DNA of 11,283 nucleotides from a virus. Its lineage: Duplodnaviria; Heunggongvirae; Uroviricota; Caudoviricetes. Each line of letters opens with the position of its first letter. Position 1 is the first letter of the stretch. Positions 5,695 to 9,582 of the stretch are shown piece by piece. The stretch is from IMG/VR virus record IMGVR_UViG_2675903654_000023; one strand, given 5' to 3'. The notes under the pieces were generated by a model. That model saw only the letters and a list, made by a program, of their open reading frames with translations. It made no database searches and was not told the DNA's origin. A program made the position numbers and the translations under genes.

Positions 5695-5713
5695 ATTGCA
5701 TGGAGAAGATAAG

Positions 5714-5971
5714 ATGCAGCAGTATCACTATCCACTGGAAGACGGATTTACCGAAAGGATTCACACGCCGGGAGGCGTCAGGTCACTGGTGGAGGGATCG
5801 CACTTGATGAAATTACTCCGGGATCTCGATAAGGATGGATTTAATGTCGATGGCCCACTTGCCGAACTGACTGCACTGATTAACTACGTCACCAGCTCAC
5901 AGATGTCTATGCGGGATCTGCAAACACATCTCGACTATTGTGCCGAACAATTACGAAAACAAACCAGATAA
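5714..5971 (+). CDS. Small stand-alone antirepressor C-domain protein (85 aa), probably SOS-controlled
   Basis: RBS GGAG (5702-5705) precedes the ATG at 5714. The protein aligns without gaps over about 72 residues with the shared C-terminal domain of the two larger antirepressor-like proteins, at roughly 45-50% identity by eye (IHTPGGV...LMKLL...DG..V.G..AELT...RDLQTH..Y). The LexA box lies immediately upstream. Confidence 0.6.
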   Translation: MQQYHYPLEDGFTERIHTPGGVRSLVEGSHLMKLLRDLDKDGFNVDGPLAELTALINYVTSSQMSMRDLQTHLDYCAEQLRKQTR

Positions 5972-5974
5972 GGT

Positions 5975-6003
5975 TTGCAATTACCAAGTGGAGTGCTTAT
6001 ATT
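5975..6003 (+). promoter_or_regulatory. Sigma70-type promoter of the plus-arm sRNA-like element
   Basis: Seen directly: -35 TTGCAA (5975-5980), 17-nt spacer, -10 TATATT (5998-6003). It begins 4 nt after the stop codon of the 85-aa gene. Confidence 0.5.
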
Positions 6004-6017
6004 TACCTTTGCGGTAA
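6003..6017. promoter_or_regulatory. Palindromic operator-like site TTACC-N5-GGTAA (copy 2 of 4), overlapping the -10/+1 of the sRNA promoter
   Basis: Seen directly: ATTTACCtttgcGGTAAAT, an extended 7-5-7 palindrome. Confidence 0.5.
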
Positions 6018-6130
6018 ATTTACATCGCACTCCTCTTGTGCCATAGTAATCGGGCACTGGCAAAATCCAGTGCCGGGATTGGCGTCCCGGATTACTACAG
6101 AGGCACATATGCCGCATAAGCGGTTTTTTT
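6010..6130 (+). ncRNA. Candidate structured small RNA / terminated leader (plus arm)
   Basis: Bounded by the promoter above and an intrinsic terminator (GCCGC-ATAA-GCGG followed by seven T, about 6111-6130). The core (about 6004-6097) is more than 95% identical to the inverted copy at 8993-9086. It contains stable hairpins (GGCACTGG-CAAAAT-CCAGTGCC and CCGGGA-TTGGCG-TCCCGG). No conserved ORF spans it. Confidence 0.5.
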
Positions 6131-6225
6131 ATGTGTAAAACGCACCTATTCTATGGTGGGCTGTGTGGGGGCACCGAAAGGTGCGCCGGGTCCTTTGTAG
6201 CCGGTTACGCCAACTCTGCACAGTT

Positions 6226-6256
6226 CACCACCAACCGATTGGCGTCGGTAGTGGTG
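6226..6256 (+). promoter_or_regulatory. Leader hairpin upstream of the Bro-N antirepressor RBS, loop UUGGCG
   Basis: Seen directly: CACCACC-A-ACCGA-TTGGCG-TCGGT-A-GTGGTG. The loop is identical to the hairpin-2 loop of the plus-arm sRNA element. The hairpin ends about 27 nt before the ATG at 6284. Confidence 0.45.
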
Positions 6257-6283
6257 ATTAACCTAACTACAAAGGTGATCACT

Positions 6284-6970
6284 ATGACTGCTAACGTAAC
6301 CCCATCTGTTTTTCATTTTGAATCAGAAGCAACCATTCGAGCCATTGTTATTGATGGAAATCCTTGGTTTGTTGCCAAAGACGTTATTAAAGCTCTTCAA
6401 CTGACAAACCCCACTATGTCAATAAAATCTCTTGATGATGATGAAAGGGCTAAATTTAACTTAGGCCGTCAAGGCGAAACCAATATTATCAACGAGTCAG
6501 GCCTCTACACACTGATCCTCCGCTGCCGCGACGCAGTGACACCAGGCACTATCCCCTACCGCTTTCGTAAATGGGTTACAGGTGAGGTTCTTCCTCAGAT
6601 CCGCCGCACCGGAAGTTACATTAAAAACTCGCTCCCGCAGGAAGAACGCATAAAGATGGTTGCCGACCAGGTAGCCAACGCCACGGCGTCAGCAGTGATG
6701 AAGGCGATGAAGATAGAGAACAAAACCTACAGCGCCCCGCTGAAGCCAGGCTACCGCAGCCTGATTCACTCGCCGTCTGGTGTTCTCGGCCTGACGGAGA
6801 ACTCACTGCTGATGAATCTGCTGAACCAGTTACAGGAAGACGGGCACGACGTATCGGGCGCGGCGGCGGAGCTGACCACCATGTTCTGCTACATCGTCGG
6901 TGTGAGCAAATGCCTGCGTGATATCCAGACGCACGCGGAGTACATCAACGACAAGGCTGGGTTCTTCTGA
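6284..6970 (+). CDS. Antirepressor-like protein: N-terminal Bro-N domain plus shared C-terminal domain
   Basis: Internal ATG of track ORF 6131-6970, with RBS AGGTGA 5 nt upstream. The N-terminus has Bro-N motifs (IRAIVIDGNPWFVAKDV...GLYTLILRCR...FRKWVTGEVLPQIRRTG). The C-terminal roughly 80 aa are identical to those of the convergent gene at 8144-8800. Confidence 0.8.
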   Translation: MTANVTPSVFHFESEATIRAIVIDGNPWFVAKDVIKALQLTNPTMSIKSLDDDERAKFNLGRQGETNIINESGLYTLILRCRDAVTPGTIPYRFRKWVTGEVLPQIRRTGSYIKNSLPQEERIKMVADQVANATASAVMKAMKIENKTYSAPLKPGYRSLIHSPSGVLGLTENSLLMNLLNQLQEDGHDVSGAAAELTTMFCYIVGVSKCLRDIQTHAEYINDKAGFF

Positions 6971-6993
6971 CGGGCGGCGGCACAGGGATGTGC
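6730..6993. repeat. Inner inverted repeat, left arm (partner 8121-8385)
   Basis: Seen directly by reverse-complement comparison. About 230 bp (6763-6993) are near-identical to the reverse complement of 8121-8352, with one mismatch noticed. Identity drops to roughly 90% over the preceding 30 bp and is then lost. It covers the shared C-domain coding sequence plus a 3' hairpin (GGCACAGGGATGTGCC). Confidence 0.85.
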
Positions 6994-7117: not shown

Positions 7118-7297
7118 ATGCGAAACGAAAAATTGCAGATGCGTAGAGCGCAAGCTGCCGCAAGACGTTCTTTCAATGGAAGCGTAGAGTACGTAAAAGT
7201 TACTATGACAAAAGATCACGCAAGTCGCGTATCCCGCGCTTTCTTTGATTCTCGTAACAATAAGGAAAATTATGAGTTCGTCTGCGTCGCAGAATGA
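7118..7297 (+). CDS. Small basic protein (59 aa), candidate antitoxin or regulator of the central module
   Basis: Absent from the ORF track, presumably below its length cut-off; hand-translated as MRNEKLQMRRAQAAARRSFNGSVEYVKVTMTKDHASRVSRAFFDSRNNKENYEFVCVAE. Strong RBS GAGG 7 nt upstream of the ATG at 7118. Its 3' end overlaps the start of the next gene by 26 nt in a different frame. Confidence 0.45.
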   Translation: MRNEKLQMRRAQAAARRSFNGSVEYVKVTMTKDHASRVSRAFFDSRNNKENYEFVCVAE

Positions 7298-7817
7298 TAA
7301 AAATCAAGTTGTCAGATATAAGGGTCGAGTGTTGCATACGCAAAATTTCTCGGCCCTTTGTGCATCTGATCTTGAGCTGAAGAAAGTATCTGATGCCTTT
7401 ACCCAGTATTGGAAAACGGGATACCATCCATCTCTTGGTAAAGATGCTGCATTTGCTCGTCCGACAGAAATGCTTAAACTAAATGTCAGGCATACTCATG
7501 TCGATAACCAAGACTATATTCCAGAAGATAGTGATAAAAAACACACTGGTAAAAAATCATCTTGGGATGCATGGAAAAATATAGCGTCTGTACAAGTAAA
7601 ATGCATACCAACAAGTGATTGCTTTTTAGTTTATTCGGTAAATCACAATCGTGATGCGCTGGTTATGTTTTTTGTTGACGCAGATGCTCACAACATAACT
7701 GAGCAAGAAGAGTTTAAAGAGGAAGCAATCACTATCAGTTATCAATTCTTTGAGAAAACAAAAACAGAACCAATGCCTTTAGAAGAAGATCTTTTTTCTG
7801 ATAAATGGAAGGAATAG
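7272..7817 (+). CDS. Hypothetical protein (181 aa), candidate toxin; weak YafO-like resemblance
   Basis: Internal ATG of track ORF 7245-7817, with RBS AAGGA 5 nt upstream. AT-rich coding sequence. Segments (GKDAAF...LNVRHTHV...CFLVYSV...ALVMFFVDADAH) resemble motifs I recall from YafO-family toxins; this is from memory and unverified. An intrinsic terminator follows directly. Confidence 0.55.
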   Translation: MSSSASQNDKNQVVRYKGRVLHTQNFSALCASDLELKKVSDAFTQYWKTGYHPSLGKDAAFARPTEMLKLNVRHTHVDNQDYIPEDSDKKHTGKKSSWDAWKNIASVQVKCIPTSDCFLVYSVNHNRDALVMFFVDADAHNITEQEEFKEEAITISYQFFEKTKTEPMPLEEDLFSDKWKE

Positions 7818-7837
7818 CCCGCAGCGCGGGCTTTTTT
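7817..7837 (+). terminator. Intrinsic terminator of the central module
   Basis: Seen directly: stem GCCCGC (7817-7822), loop AGC, stem GCGGGC (7826-7831), then six T (7832-7837). It overlaps the stop codon. Confidence 0.7.
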
Positions 7838-7909
7838 GTGGACGAAACAAAAGTCAGTGCTACACTCATTGACGCCACATTGAGGTGGCTTATAGATGGA
7901 AATTTCACA

Positions 7910-8071
7910 ATGAAAAAAGCATTTGCTGCACTGTTCGTTTTGTTGTCTCTGGTAGCTTCAACTCAGGCCTTTGCCGGTCGTTGTCAGCACGACAGCGATA
8001 CTGCCGCTGACGGCTCCCGCTGCGGTGGGCGTTCTGCGGATTCCCGCCCGGGCGGCGGTGGCATTCGTTAA
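7910..8071 (+). CDS. Hypothetical small secreted peptide (53 aa precursor, about 31 aa mature, two Cys), possibly leaderless
   Basis: Internal ATG of track ORF 7805-8071. Signal peptide MKKAFAALFVLLSLVASTQAFA followed by a Gly/Arg/Asp-rich tail. A candidate promoter (TTGACG 7869-7874, TATAGA 7891-7896) would place the transcript start only a few nt before the ATG. No convincing Shine-Dalgarno. Coding status is uncertain. Confidence 0.3.
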   Translation: MKKAFAALFVLLSLVASTQAFAGRCQHDSDTAADGSRCGGRSADSRPGGGGIR

Positions 8072-8120: not shown

Positions 8121-8385
8121 GCACGTCCCTGTGCCGCCGCCCGTCAGAAGAACCCAGCCTTGTCGTTGATGTACTCCGCGTGCGTCTGGATATCACGCAG
8201 GCATTTGCTCACACCGACGATGTAGCAGAACATGGTGGTCAGCTCCGCCGCCGCGCCCGATACGTCGTGCCCGTCTTCCTGTAACTGGTTCAGCAGATTC
8301 ATCAGCAGTGAGTTCTCCGTCAGGCCGAGAACACCAGACGGCGAGTGAATCAAACTGCGGTAGCCGGGCTTCAGTGGGGCGCTGT
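8121..8385. repeat. Inner inverted repeat, right arm (partner 6730-6993)
   Basis: Reverse complement is near-identical to 6763-6993; see the left-arm entry. Confidence 0.85.
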
Positions 8386-8800
8386 ATTCTTTTTTGTCTT
8401 CCAGCTTGATCGCCTCCATAATGGCGGGCATGAAGCCTGACAAGACCTTCTCCACTTTTGTTTCTTGTTGTCTTAAACGTTTCTCGCATTCAATGAAGTA
8501 GCGTCGTACCTGACGACCTTTTTCGTTACGCTCGACCATCGCCAGCTCTTTGGCTGTATCAAGGGTGAGGTGGTACTCTTTGCGGTTGTGGCCGCCTCTA
8601 CCAGATGTTTGCTTTCCCAAATTGGAAAGCAAAATATAGTCTTGATTTTCAATGAATTCGTATTCTGATATGCGATTTGTAATCCATGCTGCAAACACCT
8701 TTTTAACACCTAAAAAAGCGTGCAGATCGCGGGCATTACAAAGTAGGGCTGTTTCGTTAGATATAGTGCCGTTGAATACGGGGATGAGTTGAGCGTTCAT
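8144..8800 (-). CDS. Antirepressor-like protein: N-terminal AntA-type domain plus shared C-terminal domain
   Basis: The N-terminus matches the AntA/AntB antirepressor N-domain pattern (LIPVFNGT...[10 protein letters not shown]...W...EYEF...[27 protein letters not shown]). The C-terminal roughly 80 aa are identical to those of the 6284-6970 product. RBS GGAG 8 nt upstream of the ATG at 8800. Confidence 0.85.
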
Positions 8801-8859: not shown

Positions 8860-8958
8860 AACTGAACGGAGTTGGTCTTACCGGCCTAAGTGGTACCGGC
8901 GTCCTTTCGGACCCCCATTCAGCCCACCATAATTCTGGCATGACTGTGCTATACGCAT

Positions 8959-9080
8959 AAAAAAAACCACGTCTGGCGTGGTATGCGCCACTTAGTAATC
9001 CGGGAGACCAATCCCGGCACTGGATTTTGCCAGTGCATGATTACTATGGCACAAGAGGAGTGCGATGTAAATTTACCGCA
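8959..9080 (-). ncRNA. Candidate structured small RNA / terminated leader (minus arm)
   Basis: Inverted copy of the 6010-6130 element. Its own intrinsic terminator on the minus strand is ACCACG-CCAGA-CGTGGT followed by eight T (plus coordinates about 8959-8982), different in sequence from the plus-arm terminator. Hairpin-2 reads CCGGGA-TTGGTC-TCCCGG. Confidence 0.5.
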
Positions 9081-9087
9081 AAGGTAA
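9073..9087. promoter_or_regulatory. Palindromic operator-like site TTACC-N5-GGTAA (copy 4 of 4), overlapping the -10/+1 of the minus-arm sRNA promoter
   Basis: Seen directly: TTTACCgcaaaGGTAA. It is part of the outer inverted repeat. Confidence 0.5.
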
Positions 9088-9116
9088 TGATAAGCGCTAA
9101 GAAATATTAAAATCAA
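9087..9116 (-). promoter_or_regulatory. Sigma70-type promoter of the minus-arm sRNA-like element
   Basis: Minus-strand reading: -35 TTGATT (plus 9111-9116), 18-nt spacer, -10 TATCAT (plus 9087-9092). Sequence upstream of the -10 is not homologous to the plus-arm promoter, yet a promoter is retained. Confidence 0.45.
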
Positions 9117-9234: not shown

Positions 9235-9582
9235 GTGCCATTCCACGGCGCAGAGCTTTATGTTGTCAATCACAACGGCGAACCGTATACCCCAATGAAA
9301 CCTATCGTTGAGGGAATGGGGCTAGACTGGAAATCTCAACATAAGAAGATTTCTCAACGCTTCTCGAAGGGTATGGTGGAAATCACCATACCTTCTGCCG
9401 GTGGGGTGCAAGCCATGATTTGTATGGCTTTACGAAAATTGGCAGCTTGGTTGAACAGCATCAGCCCTAACAAAGTCCGCCCTGAAATCCGCGAAAGTAT
9501 TGAAACATCAACCGTATCGATATCGACACGGTTGATTATGACGGTAACTTATTTCCGTGTGTCCTATTTCTCCCGCCACTAA
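9235..9582 (+). pseudogene. Probable remnant of an antirepressor N-terminal (P22_AR_N-like) domain gene
   Basis: The track ORF starts at a GTG with no RBS. Residues about 8-85 (LYVVNHNGEPYTPMKPIVEGMGLDWKSQHKKISQRF...LRKLAAWLNSISPNKVRPEIRE) resemble antirepressor N-terminal domains as I recall them. The last roughly 30 residues look like out-of-frame read-through. It ends back-to-back with the convergent 98-aa gene. Confidence 0.35.

Follow-up and report, generated by a model that had tools for sequence, protein, structure and literature searches.

Two putative P1-type C4 antisense RNA genes with different recognition sequences precede paired antirepressor genes in an Escherichia coli prophage

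The c4 gene of phages P1 and P7 is the immI repressor: according to the summary of Citron & Schuster (1990) given in PMC12197685, its product is an antisense RNA that pairs around a ribosome-binding site, blocks synthesis of Ant and sets P1/P7 heteroimmunity. In Gifsy-1, transcripts from the isrK promoter either stop at the IsrK terminator or continue into orf45-anrP. The longer, read-through RNA is translationally silent and is the source of STnc1160, a processed RNA of ~80 nucleotides (nt); when IsrK is provided in trans, translation of anrP rises 139-fold (PMC4825925). Hfq binding by IsrK and its trans activation of the downstream antirepressor are both known from Salmonella experiments (PMC4825925). 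Here we analyse 11,283 nt of tailed-phage DNA (IMG/VR record IMGVR_UViG_2675903654_000023; hereafter the window), in which an initial annotation had noticed structured 5′ leaders in front of two antirepressor genes, ant1 and ant2, at 6131-6283 on the plus strand and 8956-8801 on the minus strand. Judged by their sequences, both leaders are P1-type C4 antisense RNAs, i.e. two copies of an already catalogued element with different recognition sequences. Each leader is very probably a complete P1/P7 immI-type antisense immunity module, in which C4 would repress ant, IsrK would titrate C4 and the two cassettes would be orthogonal to one another. Throughout, the features of cassette 1 (ant1) lie on the plus strand and those of cassette 2 (ant2) on the minus strand.

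Family membership is directly supported. A scan of the whole window against Rfam returned six matches, all within the two cassettes. The C4 antisense RNA family (RF01695; gathering score (GA) 45) matches at 6149-6235 with 76.2 bits and at 8934-8850 with 61.2 bits, in both cases over model positions 1-87 of 87, and isrK (RF01394; GA 50) matches directly upstream of each C4, at 6054-6130 with 76.8 bits and at 9036-8960 with 67.7 bits. RF01695 gives 68.8 bits for the c4 of P1, which was defined by experiment, and 69 for Gifsy-1; Gifsy-1, VT2-Sakai, APSE-7 and other C4 homologues together range from 62 to 82 bits. A scan of the window for tRNA and tmRNA genes with ARAGORN found none; the resemblance of C4 to tRNA is confined to the acceptor stem and the CCA end.

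The two leaders are related much as the initial annotation had proposed. The plus-strand copy and the minus-strand copy are 68.1% identical (111/163 columns), close to the ~70% first estimated and well outside shuffled controls (49.5 ± 1.8%, maximum 53.8); the two blocks named as shared, UAUGGUGGGCUG and CAGUUCACCACC, are found in both copies; and the stems of the GAAA hairpin differ in the compensatory manner described (GCACC-GAAA-GGUGC at 6171-6184 vs. GUCC-GAAA-GGAC at 8912-8901). One statement has to be corrected: the GAAA hairpin does not sit just upstream of the Shine-Dalgarno sequence (SD) but ~90 nt upstream of it (SD at 6272-6278) and ~100 nt upstream of the ATG (6284). The conserved unit is also larger than 6131-6283: it begins at ~5992 in cassette 1 and ~9098 in cassette 2 and takes in a shared promoter-like site and isrK, its upstream part being 88% identical over 139 nt and containing a repeat (5992-6097 / 8993-9098) that is 93% identical. 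The minimum free energy (MFE) folds of both C4 copies have the C4 family shape, a long closing stem around two hairpins, with energies of −42.2 kcal/mol for copy 1 and −41.2 kcal/mol for copy 2 (z = −3.96 and −5.52); 0 of 200 shuffled sequences were as stable.

Covariation of the structure across homologues is likewise directly supported. Homologues were collected from IMG/VR by an exact-pattern scan anchored on the two blocks of the outer stem, which gave at least 120 loci and 53 distinct C4 cores; the distinct cores, together with homologues from P1, APSE-7, Gifsy-1, Stx phages and Klebsiella and Salmonella phages, formed an alignment of 63 sequences. Over these 63 homologues 99.2% of the cells of the C4 fold are paired, 15 of the 27 base pairs are altered on both sides, and hairpin 1, which carries the GAAA loop, varies at all five of its pairs. 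None of 500 shuffles reached any of these measures, and partners slid out of register pair at only 30-51%. These counts are conservative, as the alignment is a plain MAFFT alignment that was not fitted to the structure and misplaces short variants of hairpin 1 such as GUCC-GAAA-GGAC. The claim of compensatory substitution is thus correct and holds generally across the family, and the compensated helices bear out the view that the segment is kept as an RNA and not by hitchhiking with the gene; the downstream genes do begin with unrelated N-terminal regions, Bro-N in ant1 (6284-6970) and AntA in ant2 (8800-8144). The phrase “structured 5′ leader” stands as to a conserved RNA with compensated helices, but falls short as to function, as the element is not simply a cis-acting leader but a C4 antisense RNA gene; in P1 and P7 the C4 RNA is ~77 nt long, is cut from the leader of the ant operon and works by means of two short unpaired recognition elements. 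The real difference between the two copies lies in their recognition sequences and not in the GAAA hairpin; this point, the match of the unpaired elements to the SD region and the second set of targets upstream, in isrK, had escaped the initial annotation.

These recognition sequences can be located precisely in both cassettes. Following the P1 nomenclature, we designate the loop of hairpin 2 as b′ and the segment that joins hairpin 2 to the closing stem as a′. In cassette 1, the gene for C4 (6149-6235; identified by RF01695, the MFE fold, covariation, and the annotation and sequence of P1) has an acceptor-like closing stem of 17 base pairs (6154-6170 with 6214-6230), the GAAA hairpin 1 (6171-6184), hairpin 2 (6185-6205) with b′ CCUUUGUAG in its loop (6192-6200), a′ ACGCCAA in the joining segment (6207-6213) and a 3′ end A-CCA (6230-6233). 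The isrK-type small RNA upstream (6054-6130; identified by RF01394, a terminator scan and complementarity to C4) has a first hairpin (6054-6073), a second hairpin (6074-6089) that displays a1 UUGGCGU in its loop (6079-6085), a spacer that contains b1 CUACAGAGG (6095-6103) and an intrinsic terminator (6111-6130). Downstream of C4, a2 UUGGCGU (6239-6245) lies in the loop of a small hairpin (6235-6249), and b2 CUACAAAGG (6267-6275) overlaps the ant1 SD AAGGUGA (6272-6278). In cassette 2, the corresponding elements are a1 UUGGUCU (9011-9005), b1 CUAAGUGG (8995-8988) and a terminator (stem 8982-8966, U-run 8965-8958) in isrK (9036-8960; RF01394 and terminator scan); hairpin 1 GUCC-GAAA-GGAC (8912-8901), b′ CCACUUAG (8893-8886), a′ AGACCAA (8878-8872) and an A-CCA 3′ end in C4 (8934-8850; RF01695 and fold z-score); and, downstream, a2 UUGGUCU in a hairpin loop (8846-8840) and b2 CUAAGUGG (8818-8811), which overlaps the ant2 SD GGAG (8812-8809). 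The cassettes share the promoter-like site and the 5′ half of isrK, and differ in a′, in b′ and in all four cognate targets.

In each cassette the two unpaired elements of C4 match their targets on both sides. The b′ element pairs with b2 over the SD by Watson-Crick pairs at 9/9 positions in cassette 1 and 8/8 in cassette 2; a′ pairs with a2 at 7/7 positions in each; and a′ and b′ also pair with a1 and b1 of isrK. The same co-variation of recognition element and target is directly supported in 83 distinct IMG/VR cassettes, in which the joining segment was parsed by anchors, since parsing by MFE was misled by alternative folds in about one third of cassettes. No other parts of C4 vary as much as the hairpin 2 loop and the joining segment. 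With few exceptions, the loop of a cassette shows 7-13 nt of complementarity to each of two sites, one ~34 nt downstream at the SD and the other ~63 nt upstream in isrK; the sites that match the joining segment lie at about +6 and −79. For the downstream sites, complementarity measured 9.06 with the cognate and 5.41 ± 1.29 with non-cognate partners for the loop, and 7.31 vs. 4.11 ± 1.02 for the joining segment, the own target being the best in 27 of 31 loop types and 15 of 16 joining-segment types; for the upstream sites the own target was best in 23 of 31 and 14 of 16 types, respectively. Co-variation of the unpaired elements with sites both upstream and downstream argues for specific RNA-RNA recognition and against a self-contained fold. 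The stem and the GAAA hairpin form the scaffold, which accounts for their varying through compensated changes alone.

The organization of both cassettes corresponds closely to that of P1. The P1 record annotates a1, b1, c4, a2, b2 and icd, and the order promoter, a1, b1, terminator-like hairpin, C4, a2, b2/SD is the same in the window; P1 c4 likewise bears b′ in the loop of hairpin 2 and has a′ as its joining segment, has an acceptor-like stem with an A-CC(A) end, regulates an antirepressor, belongs to the same RF01695 family (68.8 bits vs. 76.2 and 61.2 for the window copies) and owes its specificity to a few bases in a and b. The spacings differ by no more than 1-3 nt: a1 to b1 is 16 nt in the window vs. 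14 in P1, a2 to b2 is 28 vs. 29, and b2 to ATG is 17-18 (17 in cassette 1) vs. 18; a2 starts 3 nt past the Rfam match, or 6 nt past the predicted mature 3′ end of C4, compared with 3 nt in P1. The ant ATGs lie 49-50 nt past the C4 match, on the same strand as C4. Some differences should be mentioned: the regulated ribosome-binding site is carried by icd in P1 and P7, whereas b2 of the window covers the ant SD directly; the window is without a C1 operator; and P1 is a plasmid prophage, whereas the window belongs to an integrated podovirus-like (Uetakevirus-type) prophage with two cassettes. Gifsy-1, the APSE phages and Stx phages also lack icd, which belongs to the P1 operon and not to the RNA family.

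The Gifsy-1 locus isrK-orf45(STnc1160)-anrP (Hershko-Shalev et al. 2016) shows the same layout, isrK with its terminator immediately preceding an RNA of the C4 family and a gene for an antirepressor. Its orf45/STnc1160 region (record L128, positions 295-540) gives a full-length Rfam C4 match at 69 bits, and mapping of positions onto the Gifsy-1 sequence places the AUG of orf45 within the conserved 5′ arm of C4. Gifsy-1 has the a-type of cassette 1 (UUGGCGU/ACGCCAA) and a different b-type, and a single cassette is described. The compensatory mutants reported for Gifsy-1, G28A/C162U and G31A/C159U (PMC4825925), map to a1 UUGGCGU (G28, G31) and a′ ACGCCAA (C159, C162) and are therefore direct experimental support for the a1:a′ pairing of the a-type of cassette 1. 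The Gifsy-1 paper presents the C4 region as a 45-codon open reading frame (ORF) and never mentions P1 c4; this ORF is not conserved in the window, where it has 15 codons in one copy and 3 in the other. The APSE phages of Hamiltonella (Rouil et al. 2020; LR794149) have isrK, c4 and a BRO-N gene arranged as in cassette 1, with a′ and b′ annotated, though the labels in the APSE-7 record are swapped relative to P1, the cassette is single and the sequence is only ~69% identical.

Two further systems resemble these modules in part. The CI RNA of P4, with seqA and seqC, is processed from the leader of its own operon and has target copies upstream and downstream, as here (PMC4825925), but acts by premature transcription termination and not at an SD; at E ≤ 1, no family of the P4 type has a match in the window. 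In the immI region of P22, where ant is under Mnt, Arc and sar, an antirepressor module likewise lies near the tail genes of a podovirus-type prophage and is kept off by an RNA that acts at the ant ribosome-binding site. Further points in common are the Arc-family gene beside cassette 2 in a related E. coli strain and the P22_AR_N fragment of the window (9235-9582). The P22 sar RNA is a cis-encoded, fully complementary antisense transcript, whereas the putative regulators of the window are encoded on the same strand as, and upstream of, their targets and would pair through two short elements.

On this basis, we propose that each cassette would operate as follows. Transcription from a constitutive-looking promoter would traverse, in order, the isrK-type RNA with its decoys a1/b1 and intrinsic terminator, C4, a2/b2 and the antirepressor gene, and read-through transcripts would be processed to a C4 RNA of ~77 nt; by homology to the annotated ends of the P1 RNA, the mature species are predicted to span 6155-6232 and 8928-8853. 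The 5′ end of C4 is made by RNase P in P1, and both window copies offer the features that such processing might use, namely a tRNA-like acceptor stem, a G at the predicted +1 position and an A-CCA 3′ end. Processing of c4 by RNase P was reportedly described by Hartmann and colleagues in 1995, and the acceptor-like stem and A-CCA end found here would fit such an account. The GAAA hairpin and the long stem would serve as the scaffold on which C4 exposes b′ and a′, both single-stranded, for pairing with b2 and a2; pairing at b2/SD would block ribosome binding and keep the antirepressor off in the lysogen, and would likewise silence an incoming phage with matching recognition sequences. Terminated IsrK, which carries copies of the target sites, would then act as a competitor, as it does in Gifsy-1, titrating C4 and freeing the ant mRNA. 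We infer the processing, the trans action and the translational block from the described relatives.

Each C4 is further predicted to control only its own ant gene. The a sets of the two cassettes are separated by two bases and the b sets by at least four bases plus an indel; in the heteroimmune pair P1 and P7, the six sites a1, b1, a′, b′, a2 and b2 show exactly 2 nt of difference apiece. Given that the recognition elements and all four targets of the window differ at or above the P1/P7 level, the two cassettes are predicted to be orthogonal. Among the predicted duplex energies, cognate duplexes reach −10.3 (a) and −12.6 kcal/mol (b) in cassette 1 and −9.2 (a) and −12.9 kcal/mol (b) in cassette 2, whereas a′ of cassette 1 with the site of the other cassette gives −4.9 kcal/mol and the elements of cassette 2, when crossed, give −4.4 and −4.9 kcal/mol; the summed energies are −22.9 and −22.1 kcal/mol for the cognate and −14.6 and −9.3 kcal/mol for the cross combinations.

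Several observations weigh against the proposed module. The remaining Rfam matches, to c4-a1b1 (RF03163), overlap the 5′ part of each isrK with 45.1 and 37.6 bits and fall just short of the GA of 46.7. The cross pair between b′ of cassette 1 and the SD of cassette 2 is predicted at −9.7 kcal/mol, so that orthogonality may be incomplete. All functional statements about this locus are carried over by analogy from P1/P7 and Gifsy-1. Neither cassette has an icd-like ORF between C4 and ant, so the translational coupling and polarity of P1 are inapplicable here. The authors of the Gifsy-1 study see in the homologous region a translated orf45 together with a structure that inhibits in cis, and not a trans repressor (PMC4825925), so that cis action may carry part of the control.

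The best surviving of the alternatives, though an unlikely one, is that the processed RNA acts mainly on transcription, pairing with a1/b1 to promote or prevent termination at isrK, as does the P4 CI RNA with seqA/seqC. In both cassettes the target copies stand immediately upstream of an intrinsic terminator; the Gifsy-1 authors themselves raised this possibility and likened IsrK to P4 SeqA (PMC4825925), and IsrK in trans raised a transcriptional fusion 8-fold. The position of b2 points instead to translation as the target: overlap of b2 with the SD is seen in the two cassettes of the window and in nearly all of the 83 homologous ones, as in P1, where it is translation that is controlled; the translational effect of IsrK in Gifsy-1 (139-fold) is far above the transcriptional one, and constitutive STnc1160 did not lower the effect of IsrK. 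Control of termination of the P4 type may be an additional layer and not an alternative to translational repression by C4.

Somewhat less probable still is a purely cis-acting structured 5′ leader, in which the fold (e.g. a hairpin beside the SD) would tune translation or stability of the ant mRNA and no RNA would act in trans. Such a leader would suit the position of the element in the 5′ untranslated region (UTR), which read-through transcripts necessarily contain, the translational silence of the unprocessed Gifsy-1 transcript, which has been ascribed to intramolecular structure (PMC4825925), and a conserved alternative helix between the 3′ strand of the C4 stem and a downstream GGUGGUGA. 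It sits poorly, however, with a GAAA hairpin ~90 nt from the SD and with the fact that the fastest-varying parts are the two unpaired elements, which co-vary with sites upstream and downstream; moreover, the P1 homologue is a genetically defined diffusible repressor RNA (P1 record; PMC12197685), and an RNA of ~80 nt is released in Gifsy-1.

The alternative helix deserves description in its own right. In the window it spans 6226-6258 on the plus strand and 8860-8828 on the minus strand: the 3′ strand of the C4 stem, UCACCAC(C), can also pair with GGUGGUGA ~20 nt downstream, in a helix that holds the a2 hairpin at its tip; in the unprocessed transcript this helix and the C4 fold are mutually exclusive. 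The helix is kept in Gifsy-1, VT2-Sakai, phi345, SW-37, Kp4865-1 and sal3, and is compensated in Min27 (UUCGCCACC / GGUGGCGA). In cassette 1 only, AGUGGUGAUU (6250-6259) can also pair with GGUGAUCACU (6274-6283), a helix that would sequester the ant1 SD without C4 and that is not kept in cassette 2.

The remaining alternative, a protein-coding segment, either an upstream ORF of the orf45 kind in translational coupling with ant or a longer Ant1 whose N-terminus starts at the in-frame ATG at 6131, is highly improbable, and both versions were rejected on frame conservation: although the frame 6131-6970 is open, both copies have an ATG after the U-run of the terminator, translation of orf45 matters for anrP expression in Gifsy-1 and public records annotate small coding sequences (CDSs) over the region, the frame from the equivalent ATG of copy 2 ends after 26 codons, the orf45-equivalent frame (AUG inside UAUGGUGGG) ends after 15 codons in copy 1 and 3 in copy 2, ATG 6131 has no SD and lies in the terminator tail, substitutions are compensatory in helices and not codon-patterned, and orf45 is conserved as a nucleotide sequence but not as an amino acid sequence (review PMC12197685). 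Public records place small hypothetical CDSs over isrK and C4, for example a 55-amino-acid ORF over the promoter-like site and isrK of cassette 2 (8949-9116, minus strand); similar calls on these RNAs are VT2-Sap36 in VT2-Sakai (L127, 363-536) and two ORFs in phi345 (L125, 213-499). Such calls are probably spurious protein predictions on genes for non-coding RNAs (ncRNAs).

Possession of more than one C4 cassette is not peculiar to the window: 9 of ~126 loci have more than one, and contigs of IMG/VR phages with two or three include L016, L102, L117, L028, L039, L062, L067 and L121. In L016 (9289-11266, minus strand), three tandem 656-nt units each comprise an isrK-like RNA, C4 and a near-identical Phage_pRha gene (~120 amino acids), and the recognition sequences of both the loop and the joining segment differ among all three. 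The a/b combinations of the window are CGCCAA with CCUUUGUAG and GACCAA with CCACUUAG; L102 has an inverted pair of cassettes, as in the window, with the a/b combinations swapped. We tentatively raise the possibility, which we hold to be doubtful at present, that prophages stack several C4 locks with mutually orthogonal codes, and that a and b recombine as separate modules, which would constitute a combinatorial RNA-based immunity code. Neither such a code nor multiple cassettes with different recognition sets are described, as far as we have found, in the P1, Gifsy-1 or APSE papers. Avoidance of shared specificity within one phage was also considered and dropped: all nine multi-cassette loci differ in at least one element, but random pairs share both elements only ~5% of the time, so that the observation has no statistical weight.

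Upstream of isrK, both cassettes have an identical promoter-like site, found by consensus scan, whose function is inferred only: TTTACA, a 17-nt spacer and TG-n-CATAGT, at 6019-6047 in cassette 1 and 9071-9043 in cassette 2. For the cassette 1 site the predicted start (~6054) falls on the base with which the isrK model begins. Directly adjoining the −35 hexamer is an imperfect palindrome, ATTTACC-TTTGC-GGTAAAT (6001-6019), with arms of 7+7 in cassette 1 and only 5+5 in cassette 2 (9087-9073, minus strand); it is a possible operator for a repressor common to both cassettes; no gene for such a repressor was identified in the window. In a related E. coli strain an Arc-family gene lies next to cassette 2, and the window has none.

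The window represents the terminal part of an E. coli prophage, beside yfgH and yfgI. Its prophage part comprises a lysis cassette, a tail fibre gene, the two convergent antirepressor genes and genes for internal virion proteins, and the nearest phage records are Uetakevirus-like podoviruses (O157 typing phage 9, TL-2011b and Kp4865-1). Among the complete E. coli genomes searched, no record covers at least 80% of the window or of the twin module. Ant1 (6284-6970, plus strand) has a Bro-N N-terminal domain (Pfam PF02498, 4.4e-20; PHROG anti-repressor Ant; a RefSeq CDS at the equivalent place in a related strain) and a C-terminal domain shared with Ant2, which has an AntA N-terminal domain (8144-8800, minus strand; Pfam PF08346, 4.2e-26; PHROG). 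The C-terminal ~65 amino acids are identical in the two proteins, within a DNA repeat (6715-6993 / 8121-8399) of 96% identity; BLASTP aligns Ant1 and Ant2 only from residue ~100 onward, and over the first 300 nt of coding sequence their identity is 54%, the level of shuffled sequences. The twin-cassette region is mosaic, the second ant gene being of the P22_AR_N, BRO-N or AntA type in related strains.

Fragments of antirepressor genes lie on both sides of the twin cassette (5696-5971 and 9235-9582, both on the plus strand): the former holds a copy of the C-terminal domain of Ant by itself (phrog_450), with 43% identity to Ant1 residues 147-220, and the latter is an ORF with only the N-terminal domain P22_AR_N. 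The ant locus has the look of a hotspot at which antirepressor modules recombine. Between the convergent ant genes (7118-8071, plus strand) are a YafO-toxin-like ORF at 7245-7817 (PF13957, 26.1 bits, barely over the cutoff) and small ORFs at 7118-7297 and 7805-8071, the latter of a membrane-associated moron family, as well as terminator-like hairpins at 7816-7832 (plus strand) and 8094-8077 (minus strand).

In conclusion, the leader is a textbook phage riboregulator: the initial observation was largely correct, and the element was already known. The regions should accordingly be annotated as ncRNA (C4 and isrK) and not as UTR or small hypothetical CDSs. The literature on P1 c4 and that on Gifsy-1 orf45/STnc1160, which do not cite each other, describe one module, and the Gifsy-1 mutants are a test of P1-type a1:a′ pairing. 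Natural cassettes offer dozens of co-varying sets of recognition and target sequences on one scaffold, sometimes several per prophage. If cassettes do stack as mutually orthogonal locks, a lysogen would express several C4 RNAs and shut off the antirepressors of incoming or co-resident phages belonging to several immunity types, and each of its own antirepressors would still be releasable by a different IsrK. If orthogonality holds, nature would already supply in these cassettes a collection of independent repressors of translation, and with it a way to approach RNA-coded immunity to superinfection among prophages of E. coli and Salmonella and Shiga-toxin prophages.

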